This document shows, piece after piece, positions 474 through 22,520 of a DNA stretch of 30,155 bases. The notes beneath the pieces were generated by a model that did not search any database, was not told where the DNA came from, and saw only the letters and a program-made list of their open reading frames with translations. The position numbers and the translations under genes were made by a program. How positions within the stretch are numbered: the first letter of the stretch is position 1; every line of letters starts with the position of its first letter. Source of the stretch: Methanotrichaceae archaeon (GTDB taxonomy: Archaea > Halobacteriota > Methanosarcinia > Methanotrichales > Methanotrichaceae); NCBI GenBank assembly GCA_963803145.1, contig CAWDLW010000022.1, forward strand, positions 1-30,155, written 5' to 3'.

Positions 474-879
474 CTAACCAACTCCAGTAACACATACTAT
501 CTTCTAAATTGAGTTCTTAACATATATCGGTGATAGTGCTTCAGATAATGACAATACCTCTAACCTATATACTTAACTATCATTAAAAACTGGAAATTCC
601 CCATAAAACTATTATCCTATGTCTATGATGTCTGTTGGGTATTAGTAAAAGTAGCGGAAAAGCTTATATGTTGGATAATTATATAATTGAAAAAATGTAA
701 CACTCGTCGGAATCGATAACTATAGAACGAATTTAGGGATAGATATGGCAGTGGCAGAGCTACTGGGCTCATTACCTAAGGGATGATGTTGAATTGCGGC
801 ATTATCAGGATAATCTTAAGTAATTTATGCTAAGATGTATTTGTTTATGTTAAATGACGGGGAAATGCGAAGCGGCAAT

Positions 880-1728
880 ATGCCCCTTGAGCTTCAGGAG
901 AAGGCTGACTTGCTGCTCAAAGAGTTCATGGCGATCGTTGATGCAACTACCGAAGATCGCCATCTACAGAGGGGTATAGTCCGGAGTCAGCTTCCCTGCA
1001 GTATGGTTGCAATATTGGATAAGGAAAGCCTTTTCATTGTAGGGCAGTTTAGCACGCAAACAAGATTCTCCAATTACATCTATACCCCTGAGTCGATATG
1101 GCCTCTCCAGAAGATTAAAAGCAGTGCTCAATGGGAGTTTGGTTTCGAGGATCCGTTCATAATTCGGTTCCCTGCTGGCCTGCCTGATCAAAAAACCGAG
1201 CAGCGCCATGAAGAGCTGGAGAGGATAGCATCTGAACATATCGACTCTGAGTTCAGTAGATTCATTGGGCTTCTCAGCCTCTCACGCACAAGGCCGATCT
1301 TCGGGCCAGCAGCTCTTGCCATTGAGAGCCAATTGGCACTCCTGCTAATGCCGATAGATGAGCGCGGGAGAAGGAATTATGACACGATAGCAAAAGCAGC
1401 TGAGGAGAGTGGAATGATTATAGAGGTGGCAGGAGATATCCGAGAGGGAAGGTCGGTTGTTAGAGATTTATGGATTTCCCTTAACAAAGCACGAATCGTT
1501 ATAGCAGATCTTACGGGACCTGATCCTGGCGTGATGTACGGCCTCGGCATCGCCCATACTGTTGGAAAGGAGACAATACTTATCAGCCCGCAAGGCTCAA
1601 ATTATCTGACGGACATCCCCAAAACCCAAGTGATCGAGTATGAGGACAGCGATGAAGGCAGAGCTGTGCTTGAGCAGGAACTATTCCGGATCCTTAGCTC
1701 GATAATGCAGCCGATTGAGGAATCGTGA
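880..1728 (+). CDS. Hypothetical protein with C-terminal nucleoside 2-deoxyribosyltransferase/TIR-like domain
   Basis: ARIVIADLTGPDPGVMYGLGIAHTVGKETILI matches the ADLTxxNPNVxYELGxAHxxGK signature. Start is probably ATG 880; the ORF track starts at 835. Confidence 0.7.
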   Translation: MPLELQEKADLLLKEFMAIVDATTEDRHLQRGIVRSQLPCSMVAILDKESLFIVGQFSTQTRFSNYIYTPESIWPLQKIKSSAQWEFGFEDPFIIRFPAGLPDQKTEQRHEELERIASEHIDSEFSRFIGLLSLSRTRPIFGPAALAIESQLALLLMPIDERGRRNYDTIAKAAEESGMIIEVAGDIREGRSVVRDLWISLNKARIVIADLTGPDPGVMYGLGIAHTVGKETILISPQGSNYLTDIPKTQVIEYEDSDEGRAVLEQELFRILSSIMQPIEES

Positions 1729-1845
1729 ATGAATATGCTGCTTGTGGATAACTCGGCCTATAGTGTTAAATACGTCCTGCTTTATACGAAGCTGCGACTC
1801 CGGACTTGGCCTGTGAGCTCCACTTGACCAGGAGGGGAAAAGAGG

Positions 1846-2985
1846 TTGAAAAAGATAAAATTGGCAGTTGCAGGTATAGGAAACTGCGCAAGCTCTCTGA
1901 TTCAGGGAATTGAATATTATAAACATGCAGATGAAAGTGATTGCATCGGCTTGATGCATTATGATATCGGTGGGTACAGAGCTGGCGATATAGATATCGT
2001 GGCTGCCTTCGATATAGATGCACGGAAAGTCGGCAGCGACGTAAGTGAGGCAATATTCGCGCTGCCAAATTGCACCAAGGTATTTTATCCGGATGTATCC
2101 ACTAAAGGAGTCGAGGTCAAAATGGGCCCAGTTCTTGACGGCGTCGCCCCTCACATGCTGAACTATCCGGAGGATAAGAGATTCCTATTAGCTGAGGAGA
2201 AGCCTTGCGATGTTAGGCAGGAACTTGAGGATAGCGATGCTGATGTGCTTGTCAATTACATGCCTGTCGGTTCAGAGCAGGCCACACGATTCTATGCTAC
2301 AGCAGCTTTAGATGCTAGGGTTGGCTTCGTTAACTGCATGCCCGTCTTCATTGCATCTGACCCAAAGTGGGCGAAGAAGTTTGAGGATAGAGGAGTTCCA
2401 ATAGTTGGCGATGATATCAAATCCCAGATTGGAGCCACGATTGTCCATAGAGTCCTGACTCAGCTCTTCAAAGACCGAGCATGTACCCTCGACAGGACAT
2501 ATCAGCTCAACACCGGCGGAAACACTGATTTTCTCAATATGCTCAACCGGGACCGCCTGAAGTCCAAGAAGATCTCTAAGACAGAGGCCGTTCAATCAAT
2601 CCTGGATAAGCCTTTGGATGACGACAACATCCACATCGGACCCTCAGATTATGTGCCATGGCAGAAGGACAACAAGGTCTGCTTCCTGCGCATGGAGGGA
2701 AGAATCTTCGGAGATGTGCCAATAAACCTGGAGTTGAGGCTGTCTGTAGAGGATTCTCCGAATAGCGGAGGAAGCTCGATTGATGCCATCAGAGTGTGCA
2801 AGCTGGCAATGGATAGAAAGATCGCCGGACCACTTTTGGCTATATCCGCCTATACGATGAAGCATCCGCCCCTGCAGTACCCTGATGAGGTCGCAAAGGA
2901 GATGGTGGATAGATTCATCTTCGGAGAGATAAGTGAGCCTAAAAGCACTCCTGCAGCGAGACCGCAGACAATAACTGTAAAGTGA
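1846..2985 (+). CDS. ino1: myo-inositol-1-phosphate synthase
   Basis: GIGNCASSLIQG NAD-binding motif, GDDIKSQIGAT, YQLNTGGNTDFLNM, SKKISKT and EDSPNSGG. TTG start preceded by GGAGG/GAGG. Confidence 0.96.
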   Translation: MKKIKLAVAGIGNCASSLIQGIEYYKHADESDCIGLMHYDIGGYRAGDIDIVAAFDIDARKVGSDVSEAIFALPNCTKVFYPDVSTKGVEVKMGPVLDGVAPHMLNYPEDKRFLLAEEKPCDVRQELEDSDADVLVNYMPVGSEQATRFYATAALDARVGFVNCMPVFIASDPKWAKKFEDRGVPIVGDDIKSQIGATIVHRVLTQLFKDRACTLDRTYQLNTGGNTDFLNMLNRDRLKSKKISKTEAVQSILDKPLDDDNIHIGPSDYVPWQKDNKVCFLRMEGRIFGDVPINLELRLSVEDSPNSGGSSIDAIRVCKLAMDRKIAGPLLAISAYTMKHPPLQYPDEVAKEMVDRFIFGEISEPKSTPAARPQTITVK

Positions 2986-2988
2986 TTG

Positions 2989-3015
2989 ATGCCTTTATCC
3001 TTTATCAAAAGGCAT
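2989..3015 (+). terminator. Inverted repeat downstream of ino1
   Basis: ATGCCTTT (2989-2996) pairs with AAAGGCAT (3008-3015), followed by a T-rich tract. Confidence 0.4.
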
Positions 3016-3199
3016 AACTATTTTAGATAATAATCTTTAGCGCCAATATCGCAAACGGAAGAGATTTATCACTATCTGCAATAGTGCTATGAAGAATACC
3101 CTTACTATATGGTTTGTAAGAGATTAGAATTTAATCGCTATAGTCACCGCCAGTTTTAAGTTTTTAAAATTTTATATCATTATATTGGTTGATTCTGGG

Positions 3200-4864
3200 A
3201 TGAAGAAGTCAGGTTTAATTTTTGTCTATTTAATAATAGTTGTAGCTGTATGTCTATCGGGATGCCTGCAGCGAGGGCCTTCTTCAAATAGCAGCTCTGT
3301 GACAGCTTCTCCTGCGACCACAAACCATACGTTCACGAATCCTGCCCCTATGAATATGAGTGCTGCAACAGGGCCCTCCTCAAATGTAGCGATCATCTAT
3401 CTTGCGGCCAAGAATATAGCCTTCAATGAGAGCACTATCACCGTTCCTGCAGGAGCAAACGTTACAGTATACTTCGATAATCAGGATTCAGGGACTCCAC
3501 ATAACTTTGCAGTTTATGATTCGCCTTCTGCATCACAAACGATCTTCCAGGGCAAAATAATCACAGGCCCAGCTAAGGCCACATATACATTCACTGCGCC
3601 ATCCAATCCTGGCACATACTACTTCCAGTGCGATGTTCACCCGACCCAGATGAAAGGCCAATTCATAGTACAGCCTTCGGGAGCCACATCTCAGGCGGGC
3701 ATATCCCAGTCAAACGTATCTGCCTCCCGGACTCAAAATGCAAGCGCTGCAACACAGGCCATACAACAGATGAAGATGTCGGCAAGCGTAAATATCAAGG
3801 ATTATGCCTACGACCCTAGTACAATTACCATTCCGGCTGGAACTTCAGTAACTTGGACAAACCTGGATACTGTTCCGCACACAGTAACAAGCACAAACGG
3901 CAAATTTGATTCGGGGATCTTGGGACAGGGCAGGATATTCAACTATACATTCAGCGATCCTGGGACCTATAATTACTACTGTACAATTCATCCCTATATG
4001 AAGGGCCAGGTTGTTGTGACACCTTATGGCGGACTTTACCCCCAGAGTGAGATTCCAACAGCAGTGCCTATATCGACAACTTCACCTCAGCCGTCCACAA
4101 GAATAACAATAGATCTTTTGGCTAAGAATATAAATTTTGATAAGGACAATATCACAGTTATCGCCGGGGCACAGGTAAATATTAATTTCTTCAACCTCGA
4201 TGTCGGCATGCCTCACAACTTCGCCGTATATGCAAATTCAGGAGCCGATACTGTTATCTATCAGGGACCTGTGATCATAGGACCGAAGCAGATAACATAC
4301 ACATTTAACGCACCCGTAGATCCTGGCATCTATTTCTTCAGATGCGATGTCCATCCTAAAGTAATGACCGGCAATTTCTATGTCGTATCCAAGGATAATC
4401 TTGTGTACCTTACGCCTGGGACAGCTTCCCAGATGCAGCCCGCGAATTCTGTACCTGGCCAGGGAACATCGACTGCAGGCCAGAATGTAACAGCGACGGG
4501 ATCTGGACCTCAAAGCGTTACCGTAGATTTAACTGCGGAAAATATAGCCTTTGATATGAATACAATCACAGCTCCTGCCGGTGCCAGGGTTATTATAAAT
4601 TTCAATAACAAGGACAGCGGCGTCCCTCATAACCTTGCTGTATATACGGATTCTTCTGCAACTACAGCCATCTTCAAAGGCAATATCATCACTGGCCCCG
4701 CCGAGACAACATATACCTTTACAGCACCTTCCCAGGCTGGAACCTACTTCTTCAGGTGCGATATACATCCGACACAAATGACTGGACAGTTCGTAGTAGA
4801 GTCAGCAGGAATCACACAAACGACGAATGTAATGGCCGCGAACATGTCTGGAATGAATATGTGA
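3200..4864 (+). CDS. Lipoprotein with four tandem type-1 copper (cupredoxin) domains
   Basis: Signal peptide with lipobox-like VCLSGC. Four sites: PHN...CDVHPTQM, PHT...CTIHPYM, PHN...CDVHPKVM and PHN...CDIHPTQM. Ser/Thr/Pro linkers with many N-x-S/T sequons and a Met-rich C-terminus. Confidence 0.9.
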   Translation: MKKSGLIFVYLIIVVAVCLSGCLQRGPSSNSSSVTASPATTNHTFTNPAPMNMSAATGPSSNVAIIYLAAKNIAFNESTITVPAGANVTVYFDNQDSGTPHNFAVYDSPSASQTIFQGKIITGPAKATYTFTAPSNPGTYYFQCDVHPTQMKGQFIVQPSGATSQAGISQSNVSASRTQNASAATQAIQQMKMSASVNIKDYAYDPSTITIPAGTSVTWTNLDTVPHTVTSTNGKFDSGILGQGRIFNYTFSDPGTYNYYCTIHPYMKGQVVVTPYGGLYPQSEIPTAVPISTTSPQPSTRITIDLLAKNINFDKDNITVIAGAQVNINFFNLDVGMPHNFAVYANSGADTVIYQGPVIIGPKQITYTFNAPVDPGIYFFRCDVHPKVMTGNFYVVSKDNLVYLTPGTASQMQPANSVPGQGTSTAGQNVTATGSGPQSVTVDLTAENIAFDMNTITAPAGARVIINFNNKDSGVPHNLAVYTDSSATTAIFKGNIITGPAETTYTFTAPSQAGTYFFRCDIHPTQMTGQFVVESAGITQTTNVMAANMSGMNM

Positions 4865-4951
4865 AAGAATATGTGAAAGGCTAACGCTTCAATAGCGAGC
4901 ATATTCAAAGCGAGCTAAAATACTTCCTCTTATTCGAACTGGCGCAAGAAA

Positions 4952-5031
4952 ATAGTAATAGTAAATTAGTAGTGATAGTAAATTAATTAAGGTTGTAAAA
5001 CAATATTGAATTACTTTGAGGAGTTGATGAA
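4952..5031 (+). promoter_or_regulatory. Conserved upstream cassette, copy 1 (TAGTAAATTAATTAAGG...TTACTT..GAGGAGTTGATGA)
   Basis: Aligns with the regions upstream of 7221 and 8194. TATA-like TTAATTAA plus RBS. Confidence 0.6.
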
Positions 5032-6621
5032 TTGATTAAAAATCCTTCGATTAAAGCATTGGCGCCTTTGGTCATGCTGGCCATAATCGTTATGCCTGCA
5101 TATGCTGCAGCTGTTGGCGTCCCTCCAGAGGTTACCAATTATTCCAAAGACTGGCCCCTGCCGAACCATGATTATGGAAACACAAGGGCTTCAACAAATT
5201 CTACTATTAACTCAGGGAACGTTAATTCTCTTGGTGTTGCCTGGTCAATGCCGATTGTTGGCATATCAGCTTATGGCGGCGCTGCGAGCACACCATTAAT
5301 TCTGGGGAGTACAATCTACTTCCAGGACCTGAAGAGCAATGTCTATTCCCTTGACCTTAAGACAGGCAAGGTGGATTGGGTTCAGATGCTCAACGATACC
5401 AACTACGGTCCGAATGGTCCGGCTGTCGGATGGGGCAAGGTGTTCATAAACCGGGGTCACTTTAACCTTTCTGCCCTTGATATCAAGTCCGGCAAAGTGC
5501 TTTGGACAACGAGGCTCTCCTATGTGAATACTACCGGCATTGATATCCAGCCCACGATCTATGACGGCATGGTTTATGCTTCGACTGTGCCTGGAACATC
5601 GGATCTGAACTGGTACACTGCTGGTGGTATAGGCATGATTTATGCGCTGGACCAAGATACAGGCAAGGTAAAATGGAATTTCAGTACAGTGGACTCGCCT
5701 AATCTTTGGGGCCATCCAGAGATCAACAGTGGCGGAGGATGCTGGTACACTCCTGCCATTGACTTAAATACGGGCATAATTTATTGGGGCATTGCCAATC
5801 CGGCTCCATTCCCCGGCACCAAAGAATATCCCAATGGAAGCAGCCGCCCGGGTCCCGACCTGTACACTGACAGCATGATGGCTCTGAATCACAGCACTGG
5901 GAGCATGAAGTGGTTTAACCAGGTCTATCCCCATGATCTCTATGATTTCGATCTGCAGATCGCACCAGTTCTTGCCAGTGGAAATGTAAGCGGAAAGCAG
6001 CAGGATATAGTCATCGGCGCTGGCAAGATGGGCAAAGTCTTTGGCTTCAATCGTGAGTCTGGAGCACTGCTATGGTCAACAGCGGTCGGAGAGCATAATG
6101 AAAACGATTCGCTTGACAGGCTCCCCGAAGGGATAACAAGAACAATGCCTGCCGTTACCGGTGGCGTAGAGACGCCCATGGCATATGCAGATGGAATCAT
6201 ATATGTGCCTGTGATCGATAAGTTTGCCGATTGGACTCCTTCCGGCTTCATATCATCAACTTTCAGCTTCAGCACTGGAAGAGGCGGCCTCTGGGCAGTC
6301 AATACCAGCACAGGAAAGGTCCTGTGGTACAAGAAGTTCAATTCGATTGACGTCGGAGGAGCGACTGTTGTCGGTGATCTCGTGTTCACCGCTACATATG
6401 ACGGAACCATTTACGCATTCAAGCGAGATACCGGCGATAATTTATGGACGTATAAAGCACCGGCAGGAATCAATGGTTGGCCTGCAGTCTCAGGCGATAC
6501 AATAATCTGGCCCTGTGGTGTTGGTGGGATGCCATCCTTGATTGCGTTCAGATTGGGGATGCCTAGGCGTATCTTCTCAGTCCATGATGTCAACTGCAAA
6601 AACCAATGTTTCAATGGATAA
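5032..6621 (+). CDS. Secreted PQQ-binding beta-propeller dehydrogenase-like protein (quinoprotein family); C-terminus probably frameshifted
   Basis: Signal peptide, DWPLPNHDYGNTR start, repeated A(L/F)DxxTGKxxW Trp-docking motifs, GGGCW, YWGIANP, DLYTDS, HDLYDFD and GAGKMG. Confidence 0.85.
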   Translation: MIKNPSIKALAPLVMLAIIVMPAYAAAVGVPPEVTNYSKDWPLPNHDYGNTRASTNSTINSGNVNSLGVAWSMPIVGISAYGGAASTPLILGSTIYFQDLKSNVYSLDLKTGKVDWVQMLNDTNYGPNGPAVGWGKVFINRGHFNLSALDIKSGKVLWTTRLSYVNTTGIDIQPTIYDGMVYASTVPGTSDLNWYTAGGIGMIYALDQDTGKVKWNFSTVDSPNLWGHPEINSGGGCWYTPAIDLNTGIIYWGIANPAPFPGTKEYPNGSSRPGPDLYTDSMMALNHSTGSMKWFNQVYPHDLYDFDLQIAPVLASGNVSGKQQDIVIGAGKMGKVFGFNRESGALLWSTAVGEHNENDSLDRLPEGITRTMPAVTGGVETPMAYADGIIYVPVIDKFADWTPSGFISSTFSFSTGRGGLWAVNTSTGKVLWYKKFNSIDVGGATVVGDLVFTATYDGTIYAFKRDTGDNLWTYKAPAGINGWPAVSGDTIIWPCGVGGMPSLIAFRLGMPRRIFSVHDVNCKNQCFNG

Positions 6622-7009
6622 ATCCGCATCCCAGAATCGAACTGTTGCGACTTCTGTGTCATCATCCAAAGCTTCGACCAATCTATCAAACTTAATGCCG
6701 ACAGGTCAGAGTTCGAAGAATGTGGTTATAAACCTGACTGCAAAGAATATTGCTTTTGATAAGAATAGCATCACAGTGCCTGCAGGAGCGCATATCAAAG
6801 TGAACTTCGATAACCAGGATAACGGAATCCAGCATAACATCGCCTTCTATACAGATGCCTCTGCCTCAAAGCTCATCTATGTTGGAGCGATTATTACAGG
6901 CCCTAAGGAGATCACCTATGCCTTTGATGCACCGACCACACCCGGGACGTACTTCTTCAGATGCGATGTTCATCCAACGGTCATGACAGGCCAGTTTGTT
7001 GTGGAGTAA
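6566..7009 (+). CDS. Ser/Thr linker plus cupredoxin domain; probably the +1-frame C-terminal part of the 5032 quinoprotein
   Basis: No signal peptide. AKNIAF...QHN...CDVHPTVM is intact. It overlaps the 5032 ORF end. Deleting one base near 6565 gives IAFRLGMP-GVSSQSMM... Confidence 0.75.
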   Translation, partial: GVSSQSMMSTAKTNVSMDKSASQNRTVATSVSSSKASTNLSNLMPTGQSSKNVVINLTAKNIAFDKNSITVPAGAHIKVNFDNQDNGIQHNIAFYTDASASKLIYVGAIITGPKEITYAFDAPTTPGTYFFRCDVHPTVMTGQFVVE

Positions 7010-7048
7010 ATCGAAATTTCAGTCCACAGGCAATTGAAATTTCGTTTC

Positions 7049-7080
7049 AGGGGCACTTGGCCCCTTTCCCTCTTATTTTT
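7049..7080 (+). terminator. GC hairpin plus T-rich tract after the cupredoxin segment
   Basis: AGGGGC-ACTTG-GCCCCT then TTCCCTCTTATTTTT. It is preceded by a 10-bp inverted repeat CGAAATTTCA/TGAAATTTCG (7012-7044). Confidence 0.55.
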
Positions 7081-7142
7081 ATAATATCTCTGAACCCTCA
7101 TTCTGAGCGTCAGGACATTAATCAAATCATGGCTTTTATGCG

Positions 7143-7220
7143 TAGTAGTAATAGCAAAATAGTTAAAGGAGTATAGCGAAATAGTTAATACTCTAATGAA
7201 TTACTTCGGAGGTTGTTGAG
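7143..7220 (+). promoter_or_regulatory. Conserved upstream cassette, copy 2, with palindrome GAGTA-N15-TACTC (7169-7193)
   Basis: TAGCAAAATAGTTAAAGGAGTA...TACTC...TTACTTCGGAGGTTGTTGAG-ATG. Confidence 0.6.
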
Positions 7221-7988
7221 ATGATAAACGAGATCAAAAAGCTTGGTTTGATAATACTATCTCTAGTAATGCTGGCGGTCCTAACCTTGCCTGCATGTAC
7301 AGCACAGACGAGTACAAGTGGTATGCCAACGATAATGATAACTTCGCCAAAAGAGGGAGCAACGATTCCTGCAGGCAATGTCACAATAATGGTCAATGTC
7401 ACGAACTTTAAGCTGGTGAATAAGCTTGGCCAGGCAAATGTTGCTGGCGAGGGCCACGTCCATTACTACATTGATGTCGCAGTTCCAAAGACACCTGGCA
7501 AGCCTGCAACTACGGCCGTAGGCACATTTGCTCCCACACTTAATACAACCTGGATCTGGCCAAATGTTATGCCCGGCAAACATAACTTCTCAGTCCAGCT
7601 TGCGAACAATGACCATACTCCTTTGATTCCGCTGGTCTATAATACAGTCAATGTTACAGTCGTGGCCAATACAACCTTGAAGACGATGGCGGTACAGAAT
7701 ATTGCTATAGGTCTCATAGCCAAGAATATAGCTTTTAACACTTCCACGATCACTGTTCCTGCTGGAGCCAACATCACTGTGAACTTCGATAACCAGGATA
7801 CATACGTACCTCACAACTTCGCCGTCTATACTGATTCATCCGCTACAAAGACCATATTCCAAGGGAAGCAAATTACCGGCCCAGCTAAAACATCATATAC
7901 ATTCACAGCGCCTTCCCAGGCTGGGACCTACTTCTTCAGATGCGATGTTCATCCAACGCAAATGACTGGCCAGTTTATAGTGCAGTGA
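7221..7988 (+). CDS. Secreted protein: His-rich Ig-like (DUF4399-like) domain plus C-terminal cupredoxin
   Basis: Signal peptide, ITSPKEGATI, GHVHYYID...PGKHNFSVQLANNDH, then PHN...CDVHPTQM. GGAGG RBS. Confidence 0.85.
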   Translation: MINEIKKLGLIILSLVMLAVLTLPACTAQTSTSGMPTIMITSPKEGATIPAGNVTIMVNVTNFKLVNKLGQANVAGEGHVHYYIDVAVPKTPGKPATTAVGTFAPTLNTTWIWPNVMPGKHNFSVQLANNDHTPLIPLVYNTVNVTVVANTTLKTMAVQNIAIGLIAKNIAFNTSTITVPAGANITVNFDNQDTYVPHNFAVYTDSSATKTIFQGKQITGPAKTSYTFTAPSQAGTYFFRCDVHPTQMTGQFIVQ

Positions 7989-8005
7989 ATTAAGGCATTT
8001 TGTTT

Positions 8006-8029
8006 TGGGGCCCTCTGCCCCACTTTTTT
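8006..8029 (+). terminator. Hairpin plus T6 terminator
   Basis: TGGGGC-CCTCT-GCCCCA-C-TTTTTT, similar to the 7049 hairpin. Confidence 0.65.
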
Positions 8030-8121
8030 AGGAATATTTAGCGAATCTGAATCAGTCACTCCTTCTGGAGTTCCGTATAATGAAAATTTTCTCGTGTCAA
8101 ATCTTTCATGCAGGATTATAC

Positions 8122-8193
8122 TAGTAAATTAATTAAAGGAGTAATGCGATATACTAATTGCTCTACGGAGCTACTTCTAAGGAGTTGTTGAGA
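8122..8193 (+). promoter_or_regulatory. Conserved upstream cassette, copy 3, with palindrome GAGTA-N15-TGCTC (8139-8163)
   Basis: TAGTAAATTAATTAAAGGAGTA...TGCTC...CTACTTCTAAGGAGTTGTTGAGA-TTG. Confidence 0.6.
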
Positions 8194-8748
8194 TTGATAA
8201 AAAGTAAAATAGGCTTGATATTGCTGTCCCTAGTGGTATTAGCAATATTTATAATGCCAACATTTGCGCAGGCAAATAATAGTACCAATATGGGAATGAG
8301 CACTGGCAACATTGGTGCCAATACAGGATCCAACAATGTAGTCGTAAACATTATGGCAAAGAATATTGCCTTTAACATGAGCACGATTACAGCGCCTGCT
8401 GGCGCTCAAGTTACTGTCAACTTCAATAATCAGGATTCCGGAATACAGCATAACATTGCCTTCTATACAGATTCCTCTGCCGCAACGACCATTTACAAAG
8501 GCCCGATAACCGCGGGATCAAACATGACCACGTTTACATTTACTGCGCCATCCACGCCAGGTACCTACTTCTTCAGATGCGACGTCCATCCAACTCAAAT
8601 GATCGGCCAGTTTGTGGTAACGCCCATTACAGGTTCCAATACTGGATCTAACACAGGATTAAATACTGGCAGCTCAGGCTCCTCTGGCTCAAGTTCCTCC
8701 GGTTATAGTTCCTCGAGTTCAGGTGGATCTTACGGCTCTGGTTATTAA
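8194..8748 (+). CDS. Secreted single-domain cupredoxin with Ser/Gly-rich tail
   Basis: TTG start at 8194 chosen by analogy with the 7221 upstream region. Signal peptide, QHN...CDVHPTQM, and a GSNT/SSG low-complexity C-terminus. Confidence 0.88.
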   Translation: MIKSKIGLILLSLVVLAIFIMPTFAQANNSTNMGMSTGNIGANTGSNNVVVNIMAKNIAFNMSTITAPAGAQVTVNFNNQDSGIQHNIAFYTDSSAATTIYKGPITAGSNMTTFTFTAPSTPGTYFFRCDVHPTQMIGQFVVTPITGSNTGSNTGLNTGSSGSSGSSSSGYSSSSSGGSYGSGY

Positions 8749-8964: not shown

Positions 8965-9837
8965 ATGTCTAGCAAAATTGGATTATCCATTTTGATCTTA
9001 GCTGTAATACTTTCAGCTACAGTTATCCTGGCGACTAGTCAGTCTACAACGAATAAATCCTTAGCCAACCAAACAGCTTCTAATCAATCAATGACTTCTA
9101 TAGGTGTGTCGACAAAGGCAGGCATAGGCCAGTATCTCGTAGATGGACGAGGCATGTCCCTCTACTATTTTGCAAATGATACTCCTGGATCGAGCACCTG
9201 TTTCACCACACCTTATAATGAAGGCGGCATCCTTCTTCAAACGGTTCCAAATGCGACCACATGTGCTACAGTCTGGCCAGCATTCGATGCCTCTGGAATC
9301 TCAGCGTCCTCTGGGCTAAATAAATCAGACATCACTACTATCAAAAGGGATAGCACTCATATGCAAACTGCACTTAGGGGCTGGCCACTTTATCTCTACC
9401 TGGGAGACAATGCACCAGGAGATACCGACGGCAATGGGGCATTAAAGGGTGAATGGGTGTTAGCCAGGCCTTTCGGCACGGTAAATGTAGCTAATAATCT
9501 CAAAGTTGGAGCTTACCTCACAGATGCCCGGGGAATGACGTTATACTATTACAAGAATGATCAAGGACACATCAAGAACACCTGCACCGACGATTGCGCC
9601 AATAAATGGCCTGCCTTCTATGCTGGGCCTGAGGATATAGCAAGCTCTAAATTGAGCCGCAGCGATTTCAATCACATAATCAAGGATGATAACTACCAGC
9701 AAACAACCTTCAGGGGGTGGCCATTGTACTATTACAGTGGCGATAAGAAGCCTGGAGATATTAATGGCCAGGGGATAGGAGGTGTCTGGTCAGTTGTCAG
9801 TTTGGGTGTCCAGCCAAATATTTTATCCAATCCTTAG
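8965..9837 (+). CDS. Secreted Y-x4-D repeat protein (Lipoprotein_15/COG4315-like), duplicated unit
   Basis: Signal peptide and two units of LxDxRGMxLYY...D...C...C...WP...Q...GWPLYxYxGDxxPGDxxGxG...W. Confidence 0.85.
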   Translation: MSSKIGLSILILAVILSATVILATSQSTTNKSLANQTASNQSMTSIGVSTKAGIGQYLVDGRGMSLYYFANDTPGSSTCFTTPYNEGGILLQTVPNATTCATVWPAFDASGISASSGLNKSDITTIKRDSTHMQTALRGWPLYLYLGDNAPGDTDGNGALKGEWVLARPFGTVNVANNLKVGAYLTDARGMTLYYYKNDQGHIKNTCTDDCANKWPAFYAGPEDIASSKLSRSDFNHIIKDDNYQQTTFRGWPLYYYSGDKKPGDINGQGIGGVWSVVSLGVQPNILSNP

Positions 9838-10371
9838 CTTTTTAAATTTTTCTAAATTTTGTGATTCTTTGAATTATTGCTTGTTCTTAGAGTTTGCAGA
9901 AGGCCATTGAATATCAGTCCCGAAAGGAAATACGAAGGGATATAATAGAGGAGGCTATTGTCACCTATCCCTTCGTTTTGCCATCGATAGCTAAAGGAGG
10001 GTGGGGAGAGCCTTGCAAGCAAATGTATAGCTGTTCTCCCCGGAAAATGGCAATAGAGATATTACATGCTTAAACTATTTAAATTTTTTATATGCATGCT
10101 GGCTATTAACTGGTCAGCAATAGATAGAACAGAGCAAAACTATGATTCAGCTGAGCCTACACATCTTCTACTAGAGATAATCGGCGATATATTAGCGATT
10201 ATAGTGGTTTTCCTAACTTATCGCCCAAATATATAGATCAAAAAATTGTTCTCTGTATGAGAGCTTAGAGCAGTCTCATATATTCATTAAGTGGGCTATT
10301 AAGGTAGCTAGACGCCTAATAATTACAGAGGGCTCTGATAGCTCTATACAATTTTTCCTAAACAGGTGCTT

Positions 10372-10710
10372 TCATTCTAACCCTCGGAATCCCGGCTCAT
10401 TAATCTTATTGAAGTTCTTTATAATAGTCGAGGCATCCTCCTTACTTATTTGCATCTGCATCATCTTGGAGACAACGCAGCGCAGCATTTTCTTCTCATC
10501 CTTGACCGCCTGGCCATCCTCCGATTTATCATCAAGGCCGAAGTTCTTAAAGAGATACTCCGTATTTTTTTCATCCCAGCTGGTATGGGCTACCAAGCCC
10601 CACTTCTGAAACATGGCTGCTGCATGATCAAGCAGATGCTGATCAAAGCGCTCTGGAATCTGGCATCCCTGTAACTGCTTCATGAACTCATCTTTCTTCA
10701 AAATTTTCAC
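10372..10710 (-). CDS. Hypothetical protein (112 aa)
   Basis: Open frame with a GTG start and soluble, charged composition. No family recognised. Confidence 0.6.
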   Translation of the reverse strand: MKILKKDEFMKQLQGCQIPERFDQHLLDHAAAMFQKWGLVAHTSWDEKNTEYLFKNFGLDDKSEDGQAVKDEKKMLRCVVSKMMQMQISKEDASTIIKNFNKINEPGFRGLE

Positions 10711-11169
10711 CTATTCTATTAATTTATTCGATAGGATTTAGCTTTTTCTAAGTGCCTTCAATTCATGCCAGGGTCAAGCGACCGTGCTGGAAGCTGTCGG
10801 TAATAGATCCAAACAAGTATTAGTAGTTCTTCAGAACTCGGCTCTTTTATTTTATCGTAATACCTCGTTGCAGAGCAGCGGGAAAATGTACATATAATCC
10901 AATTTAGGGTTTGATTCTGTTAGCTTGTCAGCGTTTTAACGCGATGGCGCCCTGCATACATACCAGCTCTGCTGAGTTGGTGCGACGCAGCTTGATTCAT
11001 GAGATCGCGCATGCCTTGGGGAGATCAATGTTCTGAATCAGATATACTTTTTTATAGATAGGCAGGCCGCCAAAACGACGGCGGCGCACCCCGAAGCAGA
11101 GCTGTTGGGGATGTCATGTCTTGCACCCTGTTTTCTGGATTTGGATTTATGACGATGGAAATACTTAAT

Positions 11170-12256
11170 TATAGTCATTCTCCCAACTTTTTACCTTATA
11201 AACTGCTTTATCCAAGACTTAGAGTATCCATCTTTATTGGAATAAAATATTTGTAAAGCGCAATCTTGGGCATCCTCAATAGCTTCATCAAAATCAGTAT
11301 ATTTTGATATCTCTCTTTTAAAATCCTTCCAACCGAACTCTATAGGATTTAAATCAGGGGAATATGGCACGTTATATATTAAATGGATATCAAGTTCGTG
11401 GGCTAATGCCCTAAACTTCTTAGCTAGATGTATTCTAGCATTATCTAGGACAATACATATTGGTCTCATAATATTGTTACTTCTCAATTTTTGGGCGAAG
11501 ATCATTAAATCTTCTTTCTTGGATGAGTGAGAGACCATAACTTCATCATTTCCATTCAATGCAATGAACCCAAAAACAGTTCTAGACCTAACTTTTCCAG
11601 GTTGATAATTTAGCATATGGGTGTTTAAAACCCTGCGTGTATTAGGTCGCTGTTGCAAAGAGCTTTCATCAAGGAATCCAATAATAGGTTCTTTGACTGT
11701 TGTTATTACTGAATCTATCCTTTTTTTAGAAAACTTTCTGCATTAACAGGCCTCTTATTATTTCTAATATATGGTTTACCATATTTGACTTTCTTTATTG
11801 ATCTTAAAATCTTCCAACCACCTTTATACGAATATTCTACGCCTCTTGTGTCTTTTGCATATTTTATTACCTCTTTTATAGTCATTCCTTTGTCCTCAAT
11901 CTCTTCGATAATTTTATCCCATTCATCAAAAGATATCATTGGTTCTTTGCCGTTTCTATTCTGTGGTATCAATCCATCATATCCTTGTTTGTTCCAATCG
12001 CTTAGCCAATTCTTTATTGTCTTTTCACTTCGTTTAAGAATATCAGCTACTATATATACATTCTTTCCTTCGTATAAATGTATTATCGCTAGTAGCCGTT
12101 CTTTAATTCTTATGTTTCTCTCATCTTTATACAATTGATCTAATTCTACCTTCGAGATATGTCTTACAATTACAGGTTTCCTGCCCATGAACGGCTATAT
12201 CGTATATTAATTATTTAAGGGTATCTATGAGGTAAAAATTACGTGGATTAACTATA
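11170..12256 (-). mobile_element. IS630-family element, copy 1 (1083 bp plus flanking TA duplication)
   Basis: Imperfect ~31-bp terminal IRs: TATAGTCATTCTCCCAACTTTTTACCTTATA versus the reverse complement TATAGTTAATCCACGTAATTTTTACCTCATA. TA at both ends. HTH orfA plus DDE orfB. Confidence 0.92.
11191..12188 (-). CDS. IS630 transposase in two frames (orfA 12188-11715; orfB reached by a -1 shift at A7G, 11720-11727)
   Basis: orfA is HTH-like (KERLLAIIHLYEG). orfB carries the FLDES, VLDNARIH and YSPDLNPIE DDE motifs. Junction is CTA AAA AAA GGA TAG. Confidence 0.9.
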
Positions 12257-12291: not shown

Positions 12292-12780
12292 ATGTCAGCC
12301 TATATTAAATTAATAATAGCCTTGTTATCTTTGCTGACGATGACAGCCTTTGCGCAATATGCATACCCCATGCAAGGAGCTACCCCAACTCCAATGTCGA
12401 CATCGCAGACATACACTATAATGACAGCCAATAACTCATCGGTGGGTACTTATCTAACAGATAGTCGTGGCATGACACTATACCATCTTACGACCGATGA
12501 GGGGAAGAATATGAGCACCTGCACTAGCGCCGGCTGCAAAGGGTCTTGGCCGCTATTCTACAATGCGAGCCTAAAGGTTCCTCCAAACCTGAATTCCAGA
12601 GACTTCGGAAACATAACAACCAATGGGAACAAACAGACTACCTATAAAGGATGGCCTCTGTATTATTTCACAGGGGATAAAAAGAATGGAGATATCAATG
12701 GCCAGGGCAAAGGAGGAGTTTGGTCCGTAGTAGATCCTAATAGCCCCAACACATTCCCAACAAGCTTCTCATACAAATAA
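12292..12780 (+). CDS. Secreted Y-x4-D repeat protein (Lipoprotein_15/COG4315-like), single unit
   Basis: GGTGA RBS, signal peptide, LTDSRGMTLY, CTSAGCKGSWP and GWPLYYFTGDKKNGDINGQG. Paralog of 8965. Confidence 0.87.
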   Translation: MSAYIKLIIALLSLLTMTAFAQYAYPMQGATPTPMSTSQTYTIMTANNSSVGTYLTDSRGMTLYHLTTDEGKNMSTCTSAGCKGSWPLFYNASLKVPPNLNSRDFGNITTNGNKQTTYKGWPLYYFTGDKKNGDINGQGKGGVWSVVDPNSPNTFPTSFSYK

Positions 12781-13074: not shown

Positions 13075-13167
13075 GATTAAGGATCTTTTATTCAAAAATC
13101 GGTGTGGTTCGGTCACTTGCAGCCATCCTTTTCGGCCAAGAGCATTATTTGTGTAAGCCAAATGAGA

Positions 13168-13422
13168 TCAAGTACTCTTGGGCGACCCCTTCAGATCTTC
13201 CTTCATCTGCATGTACTGCTCTCTGGTTATCTCACCCTTTGCGTATCTCTCAGCTATAATATCCTCTGCACTTTTGCTGATTGGTTTACTGGGTGCAAGA
13301 ATCTTCTCGTTTTTAATAAGCCTGTAGATGAGATATGCTATCACTATTATAACTATTAACCAGAGTAAACCCATCCCGAATCCCATATAGGGATTCCAAC
13401 CCATCATAGGATAATATGGCAT
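13168..13422 (-). CDS. SHOCT-domain small membrane protein (COG3462-like)
   Basis: MMGW..MGFGMG, a TM helix, and AEDIIAERYAKGEITREQYMQMKEDL. GAGG RBS. Confidence 0.88.
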   Translation of the reverse strand: MPYYPMMGWNPYMGFGMGLLWLIVIIVIAYLIYRLIKNEKILAPSKPISKSAEDIIAERYAKGEITREQYMQMKEDLKGSPKST

Positions 13423-13657
13423 TTTGCCTACCTCTCAACCCAGAACGTTTTAAATTAATATTAGAGCTCTGATCGATATAAAGACATGGTACGAGATAGG
13501 ATAATTGGAGTTTATTGTACTGATATTGGTATACAGCACAGGGTGAGAGCTATGGGGTGCAGATTGTGCGTTCATCGGGGATTTCTTTCATAGTGTATTT
13601 CGAGATAGATAGCATATACAATGCAGATGTATTTTTAGGTCATGAGTACATGACAGA

Positions 13658-13810
13658 ATGTCCATGGAGTTTGAAGCGTGCCTGACATGTCATCGGCTGA
13701 TCACAAGGTTTAGCGATGAACGAATTCTTTGTGATCTGCATGGCCTCATTCGTCCACCTTTATTCTGTGAGGATTTCGGCACACGTGAGGAGGTCAAGAT
13801 GCATCTCTAA
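13658..13810 (+). CDS. Putative 50-aa Cys/His metal-binding micro-protein
   Basis: Below the ORF-track cutoff. Hand translation: MSMEFEACLTCHRLITRFSDERILCDLHGLIRPPLFCEDFGTREEVKMHL, giving CxxCH-x12-CxxH-x8-C. Confidence 0.5.
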   Translation: MSMEFEACLTCHRLITRFSDERILCDLHGLIRPPLFCEDFGTREEVKMHL

Positions 13811-14011
13811 CATCTGCCTTTACAAAGCAGAACAGCTTGATTTATTTAGAACATCTATAGAGTGATAGATGGTCAAACCTATTTTAATTTAGAGATCGCT
13901 GCCCAATAAAAAGATGCACAGAGCGGCCATTGTAAGCCGCTCCTGCCATCATTCCTACAACAACTCTTCTTACATCCTTGGCATGCTTGCTGCTGTCAAG
14001 GATATTATGTT

Positions 14012-15631
14012 CTACATCGTAGTTTGCGTCTTATTCCCTGGAAGCCCAAAGGCAACGATGTAGCCACCTGCGTTAGTAGTCTGACCGCCGCCTGTAGGCA
14101 CGAGCAGCATGCCGTTTCCAATCGATGGTCCGCCTATTCCAACCTGTGCACCAACGTTGAACTCCCACAGTTCCTTGCCGGTATCAGCATCCAGTGCCAT
14201 TAGGATTCCTGAGGATATCTGCGGTGTTTCCGTTGGGCCGCCGAAGTCGGCGCTGTAATTATAAGGTACGCCCATGGAGGTGACGTGGCCTGCGAAGACT
14301 AGCCCGTTGGTCACCAGAGGCGAGCACCATGTTGGATACTCGGTCTTGTACTGCCACTTGATATTGCCTGTCTTGACATCGAGGGCGACGATAGATCCGT
14401 TCCCTATGCCGTTGGTCATGGTCTTGAAGTCAGGGATAACCGTCATTCCGGGTATGTTGAAGAAGATCATTCCCTGATTGCTAACAGCTGCGTATACTGT
14501 GCTGTTATCAAAGGCTGTGAAGTCTTCTATGCCATCGCCAGATCCAGGCCAGGTCGCATTGCCGGTTTTTGAGGGTGTGGAATTTTCATTATACAACACA
14601 GCCAAATTTCTCCACCACATTGGCTTTCCCGTAGCCGCATCGAGGGCAGCTATATCTCCTCTCTTGTCATGGCCTATGACCAACTTCTCCTGAGTCCCGT
14701 TCATATTCACTGTGATCAAGTTGGTTCCCCAGGCCACGTCCCAATCGTGTGTATCAGGATATTTTGCATTGAAGATAGAGCCCTTGGCTACAAAGGGTGT
14801 AGCCCAGAGAACCTTTCCATCGGTTATGTTAACAGCTATGACGTTGCTGGAGTAATTGTTATACCCAGGCCTTGTAGATGCATCGAAGTCTGGCGCAGCA
14901 TTTCCTACAGGTATATAGACTATGCCTTTATCTGTATCAATGGCTCCGCCTGTCCAGGCATCCGCTCCGCCATTCGTGCTGTTATTCAGAGCTCCGGTAA
15001 CCCAGGGGCCGACTGCAAGTGGGATCTGCCAAAGCATCTTTCCTGTCTTCTTATCAAGACCCGTCAAAGAGCCCCTCTCAGGGAAACCGAAGGGCGGCAG
15101 ATCTCCGAGAGCTGATCCAGCTACAACATAGTTCTTCCAGATGAGCGGAGGGGCAGAAATCCTGAAGGCTCCGCCTAATGGTCGCAGCGGCTGGGATTCC
15201 CAGATCTTCTTACCAGTATTCGCATCAAGGGCGACGATAGTCCCAGCGCCGCCTGTGGGCGCATATATGATGCCGTTCTCATAAGTAATGCCATGCGAGG
15301 TTGTTGATCTGGGGAGTTTCACTATAGCCGGAACATTTGGAGTAAACTTCCACTTCGTTAATCCAGTATTCAGGTCAAACGCAATAACCTGCATTAAGGC
15401 ATTGGCCTGAGTATAGCCTGTGTTTCCAACGATCAGCGGAGGGTTCTCAATTGTATTATTGGTGTTGAGTATCCACTTAACTTGCAGCTGATTTACATTA
15501 TTTTTGCCTATTATCGTCTGAGGGCTGTGCCTGGACATGGCGCTATCATAGTTCGTCATTGGCCAGTCCTGGGCAGATACTACTGCTATAGCCAGCAGTG
15601 AGATCAAGGCCAGCAATAATAATTTTTTCAT
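14012..15631 (-). CDS. Second secreted PQQ-binding beta-propeller dehydrogenase-like protein
   Basis: GGAG RBS, signal peptide, DWPMTNYD..SRHSP, ALDxxTGKxxW repeats, GSALGD, GGADAW, YIPVGNAAP, RPGYNNYSS and DTHDWD. Confidence 0.87.
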   Translation of the reverse strand: MKKLLLLALISLLAIAVVSAQDWPMTNYDSAMSRHSPQTIIGKNNVNQLQVKWILNTNNTIENPPLIVGNTGYTQANALMQVIAFDLNTGLTKWKFTPNVPAIVKLPRSTTSHGITYENGIIYAPTGGAGTIVALDANTGKKIWESQPLRPLGGAFRISAPPLIWKNYVVAGSALGDLPPFGFPERGSLTGLDKKTGKMLWQIPLAVGPWVTGALNNSTNGGADAWTGGAIDTDKGIVYIPVGNAAPDFDASTRPGYNNYSSNVIAVNITDGKVLWATPFVAKGSIFNAKYPDTHDWDVAWGTNLITVNMNGTQEKLVIGHDKRGDIAALDAATGKPMWWRNLAVLYNENSTPSKTGNATWPGSGDGIEDFTAFDNSTVYAAVSNQGMIFFNIPGMTVIPDFKTMTNGIGNGSIVALDVKTGNIKWQYKTEYPTWCSPLVTNGLVFAGHVTSMGVPYNYSADFGGPTETPQISSGILMALDADTGKELWEFNVGAQVGIGGPSIGNGMLLVPTGGGQTTNAGGYIVAFGLPGNKTQTTM

Positions 15632-16151
15632 TCATTCTCCTTCTACGCTTTTGAAATGCCATATCAGAAATTATAGGCTGGAGCCACGAATAATCAGCCT
15701 TGCAGTAATGTTTAGTAGACGAAACATGGCATCTTAATCTTAATATCCCATTTACATTCTGGATATAGCATTCTGTAATTAGTTATAATGTGTGAATGTA
15801 TAAACTTATGCCAAATATATTCGCCCTTACCTAGTTATCCATATCAAGGGCGATATTTACTTGATTACTGATCTCAGAACTTTGTTTTATAGATAGCTAA
15901 GCTAAGTTTAAATAAAATGTAGCCAAGACCTTTTGACCAAAAGTAGCTTTAGCACTTTAAAATAGATAGTAGAGTCTAGATCGATATAAAGATGTGATAC
16001 TAGCAGGGTCATCGGAGATCGATATGTTCTGACAATGCAATTATAGCTATAGAACGGAGATCAATGATAGGGACTCATGGCAGCGCGATATAATATCCAT
16101 AGGCAATAGGCTTAAGCCATATTTTACAGTCTAAAAGATTCAGAATTTATT

Positions 16152-17238
16152 TATAGTTAATCTCCTAGCTTTTTGCACTAAGAAATCGCTCCACCCAGGA
16201 CTTTGAATATCCATCCTTTTTGGAATAAAATATTTCTAAAGCGCAATCTTGGCTAGCTATAATAGCTTCATCGAAATCAGTGTATTTGGCGATCTCTCTT
16301 TTGAAATCCTTCCAACCGAATTCTATAGGATTCAAATCTGGTGAATAGGGGATATTATAAATTAAGTGAATATCGATTTCCTCAGCTAGTTTTCTAAATT
16401 TCTTGGCCAAATGAATTCTAGCATTATCTAAAAGTATACAAATTGGCCTCATAATATTATTATTTCTTATATTTTGAGCAAATGCCATCAACGCTTCCTT
16501 CTTAGAGGAGTTGGAAACCATAACCTCATCATTGCCATTTAATGCTATAAATCCAAAAATAGTTCTTGATCTAACCTTTCCAGGTTTATAATTTATTAAA
16601 TGAGTGTTTAAGACTCTACGTGTATTAGGGCGCTGTTGTAAAGAGCTTTCATCAAGAAATCCTATAACAGGATCAGTAACAGTGGTCAGCACTGATTTTA
16701 TCCTTTTTTAAAAAACTTTCTGCATCTGCAGGCCTCTTTTCATTTCTGATGTATGGTTTCCCATACTTAACTTTTTTCACTACTCTTAAAATTCGCCAGC
16801 CATATTTATATGAAAAATCTATACCTCTTGTATCCCTTACATATTTTAATACGTCTTTTATCGTCATTCCTTTGTCTTCAATTTCTTTAATAACTCTATC
16901 CCATTCATCAAGAGACATCTTTGGCTTTTTGCCATTTCTATTCTTTGGTGTCAATCCATTATAGCCTTGATTATTCCATCTGCTTAACCAATATTTTATT
17001 GTCCTCTCGCCCCTTTTTAAAATATCAGCTACCTCATATACGTTTTTCCCTTCATATAAATGTATTATTGCCAATAACCGTTCCTTAATCCTTAGATCAG
17101 TCTCTTTTTTATATAATTTATCAAGGTCTATCTTTGATATATGCCTAATTATTATAGGTTTTCTACCCATGCCTATGTATTTTCACGCATTAATTATTAA
17201 ATGTATCTATAGGGCAATAAGCTCAATGATTAACTATA
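16152..17238 (-). mobile_element. IS630-family element, copy 2 (1083 bp plus flanking TA duplication), diverged from copy 1
   Basis: IRs TATAGTTAATCTCCTAGCTTTTTGCACTA versus the reverse complement TATAGTTAATCATTGAGCTTATTGCCCTA. TA at both ends. ORFs are paralogous to copy 1. Confidence 0.92.
16165..17170 (-). CDS. IS630 transposase in two frames (orfA 17170-16673; orfB in the +1 frame, junction T6A6 at 16704-16715)
   Basis: Same HTH and DDE motifs (FLDES, LLDNARIH, YSPDLNPIE). Junction is AGT TTT TTA AAA AAG GAT. Confidence 0.85.
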
Positions 17239-18854: not shown

Positions 18855-19095
18855 TTCATCTTTTCTCATTCTTAATGGAGTCAAAAAGATTAAACTCTTT
18901 TCGGTAAAAGAAATGCAAATAAAATAGCAACTGAACAGCTATTACTCCGAGAACATCGCTGCAAAGCTTTAACCAATTAACCAAGGCATCATCCTTCCAG
19001 GTTTTTAGCATAGTTCTTTCCAATGCAAGGTTGAAATATCAGGATTAATGAGGGATATATAAAGTAATCCCACATTCAGCATCTTCTAGATGCCA

Positions 19096-19272
19096 TTAAC
19101 GATTGAAAATGTGTATAAATGACCTCAGATCATTTCTTAGGCTGAACCCGCCTATCCATTTCTTGGCCCGAGACAGATATTGCTCGGACCTTGTTCGTAT
19201 TATGGATAACAGGCGAAGTATTAATGCGGATATCACAACAACAATCACAGTTGCCCAAAATTTTAATTTCAT
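19096..19272 (-). CDS. Putative 58-aa single-pass membrane peptide, or 5' remnant of a secreted-protein gene
   Basis: Below the ORF-track cutoff. AGGTG RBS 6 nt before the ATG. MKLKFWATVIVVVISALILRLLSIIRTRSEQ... Confidence 0.4.
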   Translation of the reverse strand: MKLKFWATVIVVVISALILRLLSIIRTRSEQYLSRAKKWIGGFSLRNDLRSFIHIFNR

Positions 19273-19711
19273 TTAAAACACCTAAGCTATACGCTCAAAT
19301 ATATTTGCTGCAGAAGACATTTAAAATTTTTGGAACTTGGTCTCCATTGACCTAATCACATATCTGTTGGATCTTCCTTTATATTTGTAGATATAATATT
19401 ACTAAATCAATTCGATTTGGAATGAATTAAGTTTTCATAATATTATTTGGAGCCTTTTTGATCAAATATAAGAAAAATTTTCACATGGTCCATTATGCAA
19501 ATACCAGTCCTAAATCGCAGAGGATTCTCAATACAGCGAAGCATACTATTGCCATTAGTTTAGCGGTATATTTAACGCTGATTTGCCTACTGGTAACGTA
19601 TTTCAGCGAATATTTAAAATAACATAGAAAAGTAATATTACCAAACATCCAAGTATGAACGATATGCTTGAACCCCTTCAGCATTGAATGACCATTGATT
19701 AAGGTGACTGA

Positions 19712-19993: not shown

Positions 19994-20041
19994 AAATTAA
20001 ATATAGAAAGTCGGCATAGCTCCAAATAATTGGGAGGGAAT

Positions 20042-22356: not shown

Positions 22357-22520
22357 ACTCTAAAATTCTAAACCTGAGAATTCTGAATGAATCGTCCTTA
22401 GAATTTATTGAGTCCATTCATTTTTGGCATATTGGTTTGGTTAGAGGTTACCATAAAATTTATAATGACTTACTGCCCATAATATTGCTAATAGTAAATG
22501 GATTTTCGGGATATGAAACG

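Follow-up and report, generated by a model that had tools for sequence, protein, structure and literature searches.

Introduction

Quinohemoprotein alcohol dehydrogenases of type II (ADH IIB), represented by the Protein Data Bank (PDB) entry 1kv9 and also by 1yiq and 1kb0, are secreted proteins in which a beta-propeller carries a tethered C-terminal domain for one-electron transfer, the carrier in this domain being heme c. Here, we describe a gene of similar construction from a Methanotrichaceae archaeon, in which a secreted, quinoprotein-like propeller is likewise joined to a C-terminal one-electron carrier, but the carrier is a blue-copper cupredoxin instead of heme c and the identity to ADH IIB is only ~20%. 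The gene lies at positions 5032-7009 of the plus strand (+) in a stretch of 30,155 nucleotides (nt) (GenBank assembly GCA_963803145.1, contig CAWDLW010000022.1, positions 1 to 30,155 of the forward strand), which is hereafter called the window and to which all coordinates refer. As written, the DNA holds the gene in two overlapping open reading frames (ORFs), and we consider it very probable that the window at 5032-7009 carries one secreted propeller-linker-cupredoxin gene whose frame has been moved by +1 by an extra base in the tetranucleotide CCTA.

Several other described systems are close to this locus. The lanthanide-dependent enzymes XoxF (PDB entries 6dam, 6oc5, and 4mae) and PedH (6zcv and 6zcw) have an Asp-x-Asp motif, the second Asp of which has been described as essential for lanthanide coordination in the excerpted text of PMC8546591. 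The dehydrogenases dependent on pyrroloquinoline quinone (PQQ) in heterotrophic marine Thaumarchaeota lack the vicinal Cys-Cys, and some of them keep the sequence DYD or DXD; also, these enzymes have been proposed to feed blue copper proteins, cytochrome c being absent. In the same excerpted source, however, these Thaumarchaeota are described as aerobes that encode a PQQ synthase and in which the carrier and the dehydrogenase are two different proteins (PMC7300363). In the methanogen lineage itself, SqpA of Methanothrix thermoacetophila is a surface quinoprotein put forward speculatively as a candidate for electron uptake in direct interspecies electron transfer (PMC10470525), and in Methanosarcina barkeri, a part in taking up electrons at the cell surface has been suggested, equally speculatively, for proteins with a PQQ domain and for cupredoxin proteins (PMC6315138). 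Surface quinoproteins and copper proteins of methanogens are thus named as electron-uptake candidates (PMC10470525, PMC6315138, PMC12072023), but they are separate proteins there, and no fusion is mentioned in the excerpts of these papers. We did not find a description of a propeller-cupredoxin fusion in the literature searched, outside of which most subscription journals lie; nor were lanthanide- or PQQ-dependent enzymes in methanogens evident from titles or abstract openings in that literature.

A propeller and a cupredoxin in two reading frames

From the ORF listing and the raw sequence, the first frame, ORF1, was found to span 5032-6621 (+) and to encode 529 amino acids (aa) from a TTG start, while the second, ORF2 (6542-7009, +; 155 aa), runs in the +1 frame, its first 80 nt being shared with ORF1. 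In Pfam, ORF1 matched PF01011 (PQQ; 9.6e-45, 153.8 bits, cut-off 26.7), and ORF2 matched both PF13473 (Cupredoxin_1; 9.1e-11, 42.1 bits, cut-off 27) and PF00127 (6e-07, 30.2 bits, cut-off 21.2). When one four-base step is read inside the overlap, the two are converted into a single open frame of 658 codons, the product of which (P0001) we call the read-through protein; the initial annotation had anticipated a single ORF of about 658 aa upon removal of one base.

The position of the frame break was examined at the levels of both protein and DNA. In the protein alignment (A1), the orthologs track frame 1 through a Met residue at 6559-6561, which is the last frame-1 residue that aligns with them, and continue in the +1 frame from a Gly residue at 6566-6568. 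When the protein of the syntenic ortholog L001 (described below) was used in tblastn, its residues 1-515 matched frame 1 up to nt 6561, and its residues 513-662 matched the +1 frame from nt 6563. From 6566, furthermore, the +1 frame was identical to residues 511-657 of another ortholog, P0002, at 118 of 147 positions with no gap, and the match is considered to be beyond chance because the alignment to an intact fused relative is gapless over this length. In the DNA alignment (A2), the window is longer than L001 by 4 nt here, i.e., by one codon and one base. The shift could be placed anywhere throughout 6562-6571, which contains no homopolymer at the shift site, and the placement at CCTA (6562..6565), where four bases stand against one ortholog codon in the alignments and in tblastn, requires the fewest residue changes. 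The earlier proposal of a fusion gene split by a +1 frameshift near 6565 is therefore upheld, with the change now mapped to CCTA at 6562-6565.

The gene as restored begins with a Shine-Dalgarno-like GAGGAG (5018..5023, +), which we read from the sequence 8 nt upstream of the TTG start; the L001 ortholog likewise starts at TTG. The first ~25 residues (5032..5106, +) constitute a predicted signal peptide with a hydrophobic core (Kyte-Doolittle mean of 2.88 over 12 residues) and an end at PAYA, where the cleavage site was placed by eye on the translation. An eight-bladed propeller of the PQQ-dehydrogenase type then occupies 5107..6561 (+) in frame 1, as assigned from PF01011, PDB 1kv9, and the fold match of an ortholog. 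Beyond the extra-base site, the +1 frame encodes a Ser/Thr-rich linker of ~50 residues (6566..6715, +; from the alignment to P0002) and a type-1 copper cupredoxin domain of 97 residues (6716..7006, +; PF13473 and PF00127), which is followed by the stop codon at 7007-7009. Frame 1, in contrast, runs from 6562 into an out-of-frame tail (6566..6621, +) that ends at TAA (6619-6621) and has no match in the relatives. This tail had been described as 19 junk-like residues after the LIAFRLG motif; the tail is confirmed, but 20 residues follow the motif, and the first of them still aligns with the orthologs.

At every in-frame start of ORF2, no hydrophobic segment was found before the domain (Kyte-Doolittle maximum of 0.57), and no purine-rich or Shine-Dalgarno-like motif was found upstream of these starts. 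A hydrophobic N-terminal segment is present, on the other hand, in all other secreted proteins of the window that were checked. Copper proteins of this type function outside the cytoplasm, and an export signal is available to the cupredoxin only when the two ORFs are taken as parts of a single protein. These Pfam, hydropathy, and motif results agree with the initial annotation, which had recognized a propeller ORF and an intact cupredoxin in the +1 frame with neither signal peptide nor obvious ribosome-binding site. From the DNA as written, the expected product is a propeller of 529 aa that ends in a junk tail, and the cupredoxin frame can be neither translated nor exported.

Intact relatives of the gene

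Full-length fused homologs of the repaired protein, which the initial annotation had proposed to look for, were readily found. Of 8000 candidates scored against the read-through protein, 3031 reached E <= 0.001, and the best 120 of the 3031 were examined. The nearest relatives are P0002 (657 aa, 88% identity, 100% coverage), P0003 (653 aa, 86% identity), and P0005 (641 aa, 83% identity), all of which are encoded by single ORFs, contain both domains, and cover 98-100% of the read-through protein. Also, a genome scan led to two loci. One of them, L001 (JBHGAU010000020.1, a Methanotrichaceae metagenome-assembled genome (MAG)), is syntenic with the window at 820-8667 and has the ortholog in one ORF of 658 codons with PF01011, PF13473, and PF00127; the other, L002, encodes a version of 763 aa with a weak DUF4399 match between the propeller and the cupredoxin.

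The intact orthologs in Methanotrichaceae MAGs share the domain order with the window at 83-88% identity, and the genes for inositol-1-phosphate synthase, a four-domain cupredoxin protein, and a small cupredoxin are neighbours common to the window and these orthologs. The intact orthologs are single ORFs, whereas the window alone has an extra base at 6562-6565. The window is also different in having an additional gene for a protein with DUF4399 and cupredoxin (7221-7988), which is absent from L001.

A hand count of partner domains among the best 120 matches revealed cupredoxin in 66, DOMON in 25, dockerin in four, and none of these in the remaining 25, in which ORF1 of the window itself is included; this ranking is tilted to the fused forms because the query contained a cupredoxin. 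The listed relatives originate from Methanotrichaceae, Methanothrix, Methanoculleus, Methanomicrobiaceae, and one Chloroflexi MAG, and they are automatically named "PQQ-binding-like beta-propeller repeat protein" or "BamB/plastocyanin." The fusion had been regarded in the initial annotation as hidden and as Rosetta-stone evidence for a link between the two families; the link stands, but the fusion is widespread in the databases and is thus neither hidden in the relatives nor new. Indeed, the fusion is the ordinary architecture of a widespread, uncharacterised family, which automatic annotation has already recognised.

Properties of the propeller and cupredoxin domains

Among proteins of solved structure, the best sequence match of the propeller was PDB 1kv9 (6e-26, and 2e-31 with a profile of seven sequences), and the next were methanol dehydrogenases and the lanthanide-dependent XoxF and PedH. 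As a structural proxy, we used an AlphaFold model of the 88%-identical ortholog P0002, which was built with 50 fused relatives hand-picked from the 66 and had a mean predicted local distance difference test score (pLDDT) of 83.2, with linker residues 516-558 falling below 50; the linker is accordingly taken to be disordered and flexible. A fold search of PDB with this model again gave 1kv9 first (E 1.1e-33, template modelling score (TM) 0.62); all of the 27 rows listed at ranks 1-30 were PQQ-dependent dehydrogenases (27/27; TM to target 0.56-0.73), and BamB propellers appeared only from rank 31. Both the fold search and PF01011 therefore place the domain among eight-bladed propellers of the quinoprotein-dehydrogenase type.

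To describe residue conservation, an alignment of 121 sequences (A3) was used, which consists of P0001, 119 matches, and the propeller paralog of the window (31% identity). In this alignment, W238, N256, D305, D307, K332, E380, and W432 are invariant (121/121), and D191 is found in 113 of the 121 sequences. Furthermore, HMMER alignments pair W238, N256, D305, and K332 with their counterparts in 1kv9, 4tqo, and 6dam. Given the roles in methanol dehydrogenase, we take W238 to correspond to the stacking Trp, N256 to the metal-binding Asn, D305 to the catalytic Asp, and K332 to the cofactor-adjacent Lys/Arg. The pair of D305-x-D307 is located opposite Asp-Tyr-Asp of XoxF (6dam), whereas the sequence there is Asp-Tyr-Ala in MxaF (4tqo) and Asp-Phe-Thr in ADH IIB; that is, the residue at +2 after the catalytic Asp is Asp in the window propeller and Thr in ADH IIB.

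Several observations nonetheless weigh against a genuine PQQ enzyme. The score for TIGR03075 in NCBIfam was 168.9 bits, far below the curated cut-off of 480.05, and the second-best NCBIfam match was TIGR04528, "acido-empty-quinoprotein group A" (1.5e-45). The name of TIGR04528 denotes quinoprotein homologs that are thought to be without PQQ, but the window protein is not a member of this family, either (155.9 bits vs the cut-off of 650). The vicinal Cys-Cys, which forms a disulfide over the cofactor in alcohol and methanol dehydrogenases, sits in 1kv9 in an insertion that the query does not have, and no conserved Cys column was found in the propeller among the 121 sequences of A3. In M. barkeri, moreover, PQQ biosynthesis genes are reported to be missing and another cofactor has been suggested, according to the excerpted text of PMC6315138. 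Because Cys-Cys is absent, TIGR03075 is missed, an "empty" family comes next, and M. barkeri is reported to lack the pqq genes, we call the propeller quinoprotein-like and do not count it among the proven PQQ enzymes. While its Asp-x-Asp aligns with that of XoxF, the window propeller is thus unlike XoxF and PedH in having no Cys-Cys, in scoring below the TIGR03075 cut-off, and in belonging to an anaerobic methanogen. The invariant Asp-x-Asp in a propeller with no Cys-Cys ring hints at a lanthanide-type metal site in anaerobes and suggests a metal requirement that can be tested.

In the cupredoxin domain, the copper ligands can be read from the 658-residue translation as H601, C644, H647, and M651 (His ... 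Cys-x2-His-x3-Met). In the 50 fused relatives, the Cys, His, and Met columns are invariant, and the first His is kept in at least 90%; the copper-ligand residues are also present in 71-77 of the 121 sequences of A3. With the Pfam models above their gathering scores and a full set of ligands, the domain has the properties of type-1 blue copper. A CxxCH motif for heme c was not found in the 658-residue translation.

Origin of the frame change

The age of the shift can be addressed by the ratio of nonsynonymous to synonymous substitution rates (dN/dS), for which Nei-Gojobori estimates against L001 were made with our own script. The ratio was 0.093 in the propeller (510 codons), 0.45 in the linker (47 codons), and 0.22 in the cupredoxin domain past the shift (100 codons); for the neighbouring genes, it was 0.19 in the four-domain cupredoxin protein (547 codons), 0.17 in the 196-aa cupredoxin (187 codons), and 0.062 in inositol-1-phosphate synthase (379 codons). 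Judging from these substitution patterns, the cupredoxin domain is still under purifying selection. Also, the 147 codons past the shift have no stop and keep every copper ligand intact, and in tblastn, each of the four other syntenic genes was matched within one frame.

Should the DNA be taken at face value, the propeller and the cupredoxin could be two independent genes, with the latter translated separately from near ATG 6584, and free cupredoxins and free propellers indeed both occur in the lineage. As already mentioned, ORF2 has neither a signal peptide nor a Shine-Dalgarno-like motif, however, and its linker and domain align gaplessly inside fused proteins. A search for short proteins (85-272 aa) with ORF2 gave 279 matches among 303 candidates, and, in the best 120 of the 279, none covered more than 78% of ORF2 and none was more than 74% identical; the matches touched only the copper domain and not the linker. 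The best of them, P0122, aligned in its last 106 residues at 71% and brings its own signal peptide. Because the short homologs match the copper domain without the linker and the best one is exported by itself, we reject the two-gene reading as exceedingly improbable; the finding that would have spoken for it, namely homologs that are always two genes with the second starting near ATG 6584, was not seen. Another way to make sense of the DNA as written is programmed +1 ribosomal frameshifting at CCU-AGG-C, a sequence which we take to resemble the Ty1 site CUU-AGG-C; a +1 slip at CCU_A_GGC would yield a fusion protein colinear with P0002. The shift is, however, absent from all three of the closest relatives and from L001, and AGG is not rare but is one of the two commonest Arg codons in the window (70 of 221 Arg codons, 10.2 per 1000 codons). 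Another in-frame CCT AGG, in the gene at 24289-25893, is read normally, and the 105 nt downstream of the shift form no stable structure (z = +0.39, 123/200 shuffles being as stable). Programmed frameshifting is thus rejected as very unlikely on the grounds of conservation, codon usage, the second CCT AGG, and downstream structure.

Having set these two aside, we return to the reading of 5032-7009 as one secreted propeller-linker-cupredoxin gene with an extra base in CCTA. The shift is private to this contig and the sequence downstream is undecayed; therefore, the extra base goes back either to an error of assembly or sequencing or to a mutation that is very young. With an error in the assembly or the sequencing, the organism would make the intact 658-aa fusion protein, and we give this a little less than an even chance. 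In its favour, none of the three closest relatives is broken, the frame past the shift is open to its end with complete copper ligands and the dN/dS of 0.22, and the window is apparently a whole metagenome-type contig of 30,155 bases. The shift site is not a homopolymer, however, and the four other syntenic genes are unbroken; because these have no frame breaks, the contig is not generally error-ridden. Alternatively, a real, young extra base would leave a 529-aa stand-alone propeller and a silent cupredoxin, for which the free cupredoxins nearby would substitute, so that domain fission would have been caught early; this falls just short of being an even prospect. Natural stand-alone propellers of 506-539 aa do occur, including the paralog at 14012-15631, and they end 1-23 residues past the LIAFRLG-type motif. 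In the paralog, the initial annotation placed the end at IVAFGL, but the protein continues 9 residues further. At least five other cupredoxin-bearing genes are present in the window, and two elements of the IS630-like type indicate a genome in flux, whereas the complete lack of decay downstream of the shift speaks against a real mutation. Two further points are unfavourable to an intact fusion protein in this organism: the 90% cluster to which ORF1 belongs has three member sequences, and these could stem from independent assemblies that are all truncated in this way; also, a real shift would give a 529-aa product similar to the natural stand-alone propellers, and the gene might then not be dead.

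The initial annotation also raised the possibility of a footprint at the palindrome CCTAGG, for which we obtained no support. The window contains three copies of CCTAGG against 2.75 expected, and the L001 junction has no such site; CCTAGG as a footprint or as a restriction-related site is accordingly dismissed. As separate observations on short palindromes, CTAG is under-represented in the window (44 copies vs ~115 expected from the base composition), and several CG-rich palindromes of 6 nt are absent from the window.

Other features of the window

Directly 3' of the stop codon of the fusion gene, two hairpins are found at 7012..7065 (+). Folding of 7005-7075 gave -22.5 kcal/mol (z = -3.6), with 0 of 200 shuffles equally stable, and the hairpins probably represent the transcript end, as a putative terminator. 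Scans of the whole window for tRNA and Rfam families gave no match.

The fusion gene is surrounded by a cluster for secreted copper and repeat proteins at 3185-4864, 7221-7988, 8158-8748, 8965-9837, and 12292-12780. The cluster includes a four-cupredoxin protein with a weak match to the model "MSMEG_3727 PQQ-associated," the protein with DUF4399 and cupredoxin, a small cupredoxin with a Ser/Gly tail, and two proteins with Lipoprotein_15 repeats. Two regions, 9838-11190 and 18885-20029, have more than 1 kb each with zero or one ORF of at least 100 aa, which belongs to no family.

The two IS630-like elements are located at 11188-12188 (-) and 16165-17170 (-) in direct orientation and are ~80% identical; in each of them, the transposase is encoded in two ORFs, a helix-turn-helix part and then a DDE_3 part. 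The pair flanks the stand-alone propeller paralog at 14012-15631 (-) in a layout like that of a composite transposon. An AT-rich repeat of 48 nt (75% identical) is also found on both sides of the paralog, at 13448-13495 and 15956-16003, and a small ORF of 84 aa (13168-13422, -), whose product has a single hydrophobic segment and a C-terminal tail that is charged, lies between the paralog and an IS element. A cupredoxin remnant beyond the paralog was sought by tblastn in 13162-14011, which gave no cupredoxin match; only short unrelated ORFs were found there.

Further downstream, the region of 21616-25893 (+) has a gene for a two-domain, lipoprotein-like cupredoxin and then genes for two paralogous membrane proteins, which weakly match cytochrome bd subunit I (PF01654; 2.5e-17 and 7.6e-20). 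A partner of the CydB type was not seen. Electrons travelling by way of copper proteins might reach the membrane through this gene group. The overlap between 21616-22356 and 22308-24125 was also considered as a second frameshift; we rejected this, as the C terminus of the cupredoxin is the natural one and the true start of the membrane protein is probably further downstream, as in its paralog.

Implications

In annotation, a single frameshifted gene should be given in place of a propeller gene with an orphan cupredoxin. The initial annotation compared the fusion with type II quinohemoprotein ADH, and this analogy fits, with 1kv9 being the best solved match in terms of both sequence and fold. 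On the same analogy, we infer how electrons would be transferred in the fusion protein. The propeller would hold a quinone-type cofactor together with a metal and oxidise an extracellular substrate; single electrons would then pass to the tethered blue-copper domain, which may hand them to the adjacent cupredoxin-rich proteins (3185-4864, 7221-7988, and 8158-8748). Such a route would also be in line with the suggestion that blue copper proteins serve the PQQ dehydrogenases of archaea that have no cytochrome c (PMC7300363).

Repeated fusion to cupredoxin or DOMON carriers provides good evidence, of a comparative kind, for the "PQQ-like" propellers of methanogens being redox enzymes rather than scaffolds similar to BamB. 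The fusion physically links surface quinoproteins and copper proteins, which have been published only as separate candidates for electron uptake. A bolder picture, which we regard as unlikely, is that the family represents working quinone enzymes of the lanthanide type that have no disulfide and act at the surface of methanogens poor in cytochromes. They would have their one-electron carriers built in (among the best 120 of the 3031 matches, blue copper in 66 and DOMON in 25). The same contig also encodes the multi-cupredoxin proteins and the CydA-like membrane proteins, and all of these would jointly constitute an electron route between the outside and the membrane that is free of cytochrome c and may serve, for example, direct interspecies electron transfer. 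If this is true, the frameshift in the window would be a natural knock-out of the built-in carrier.

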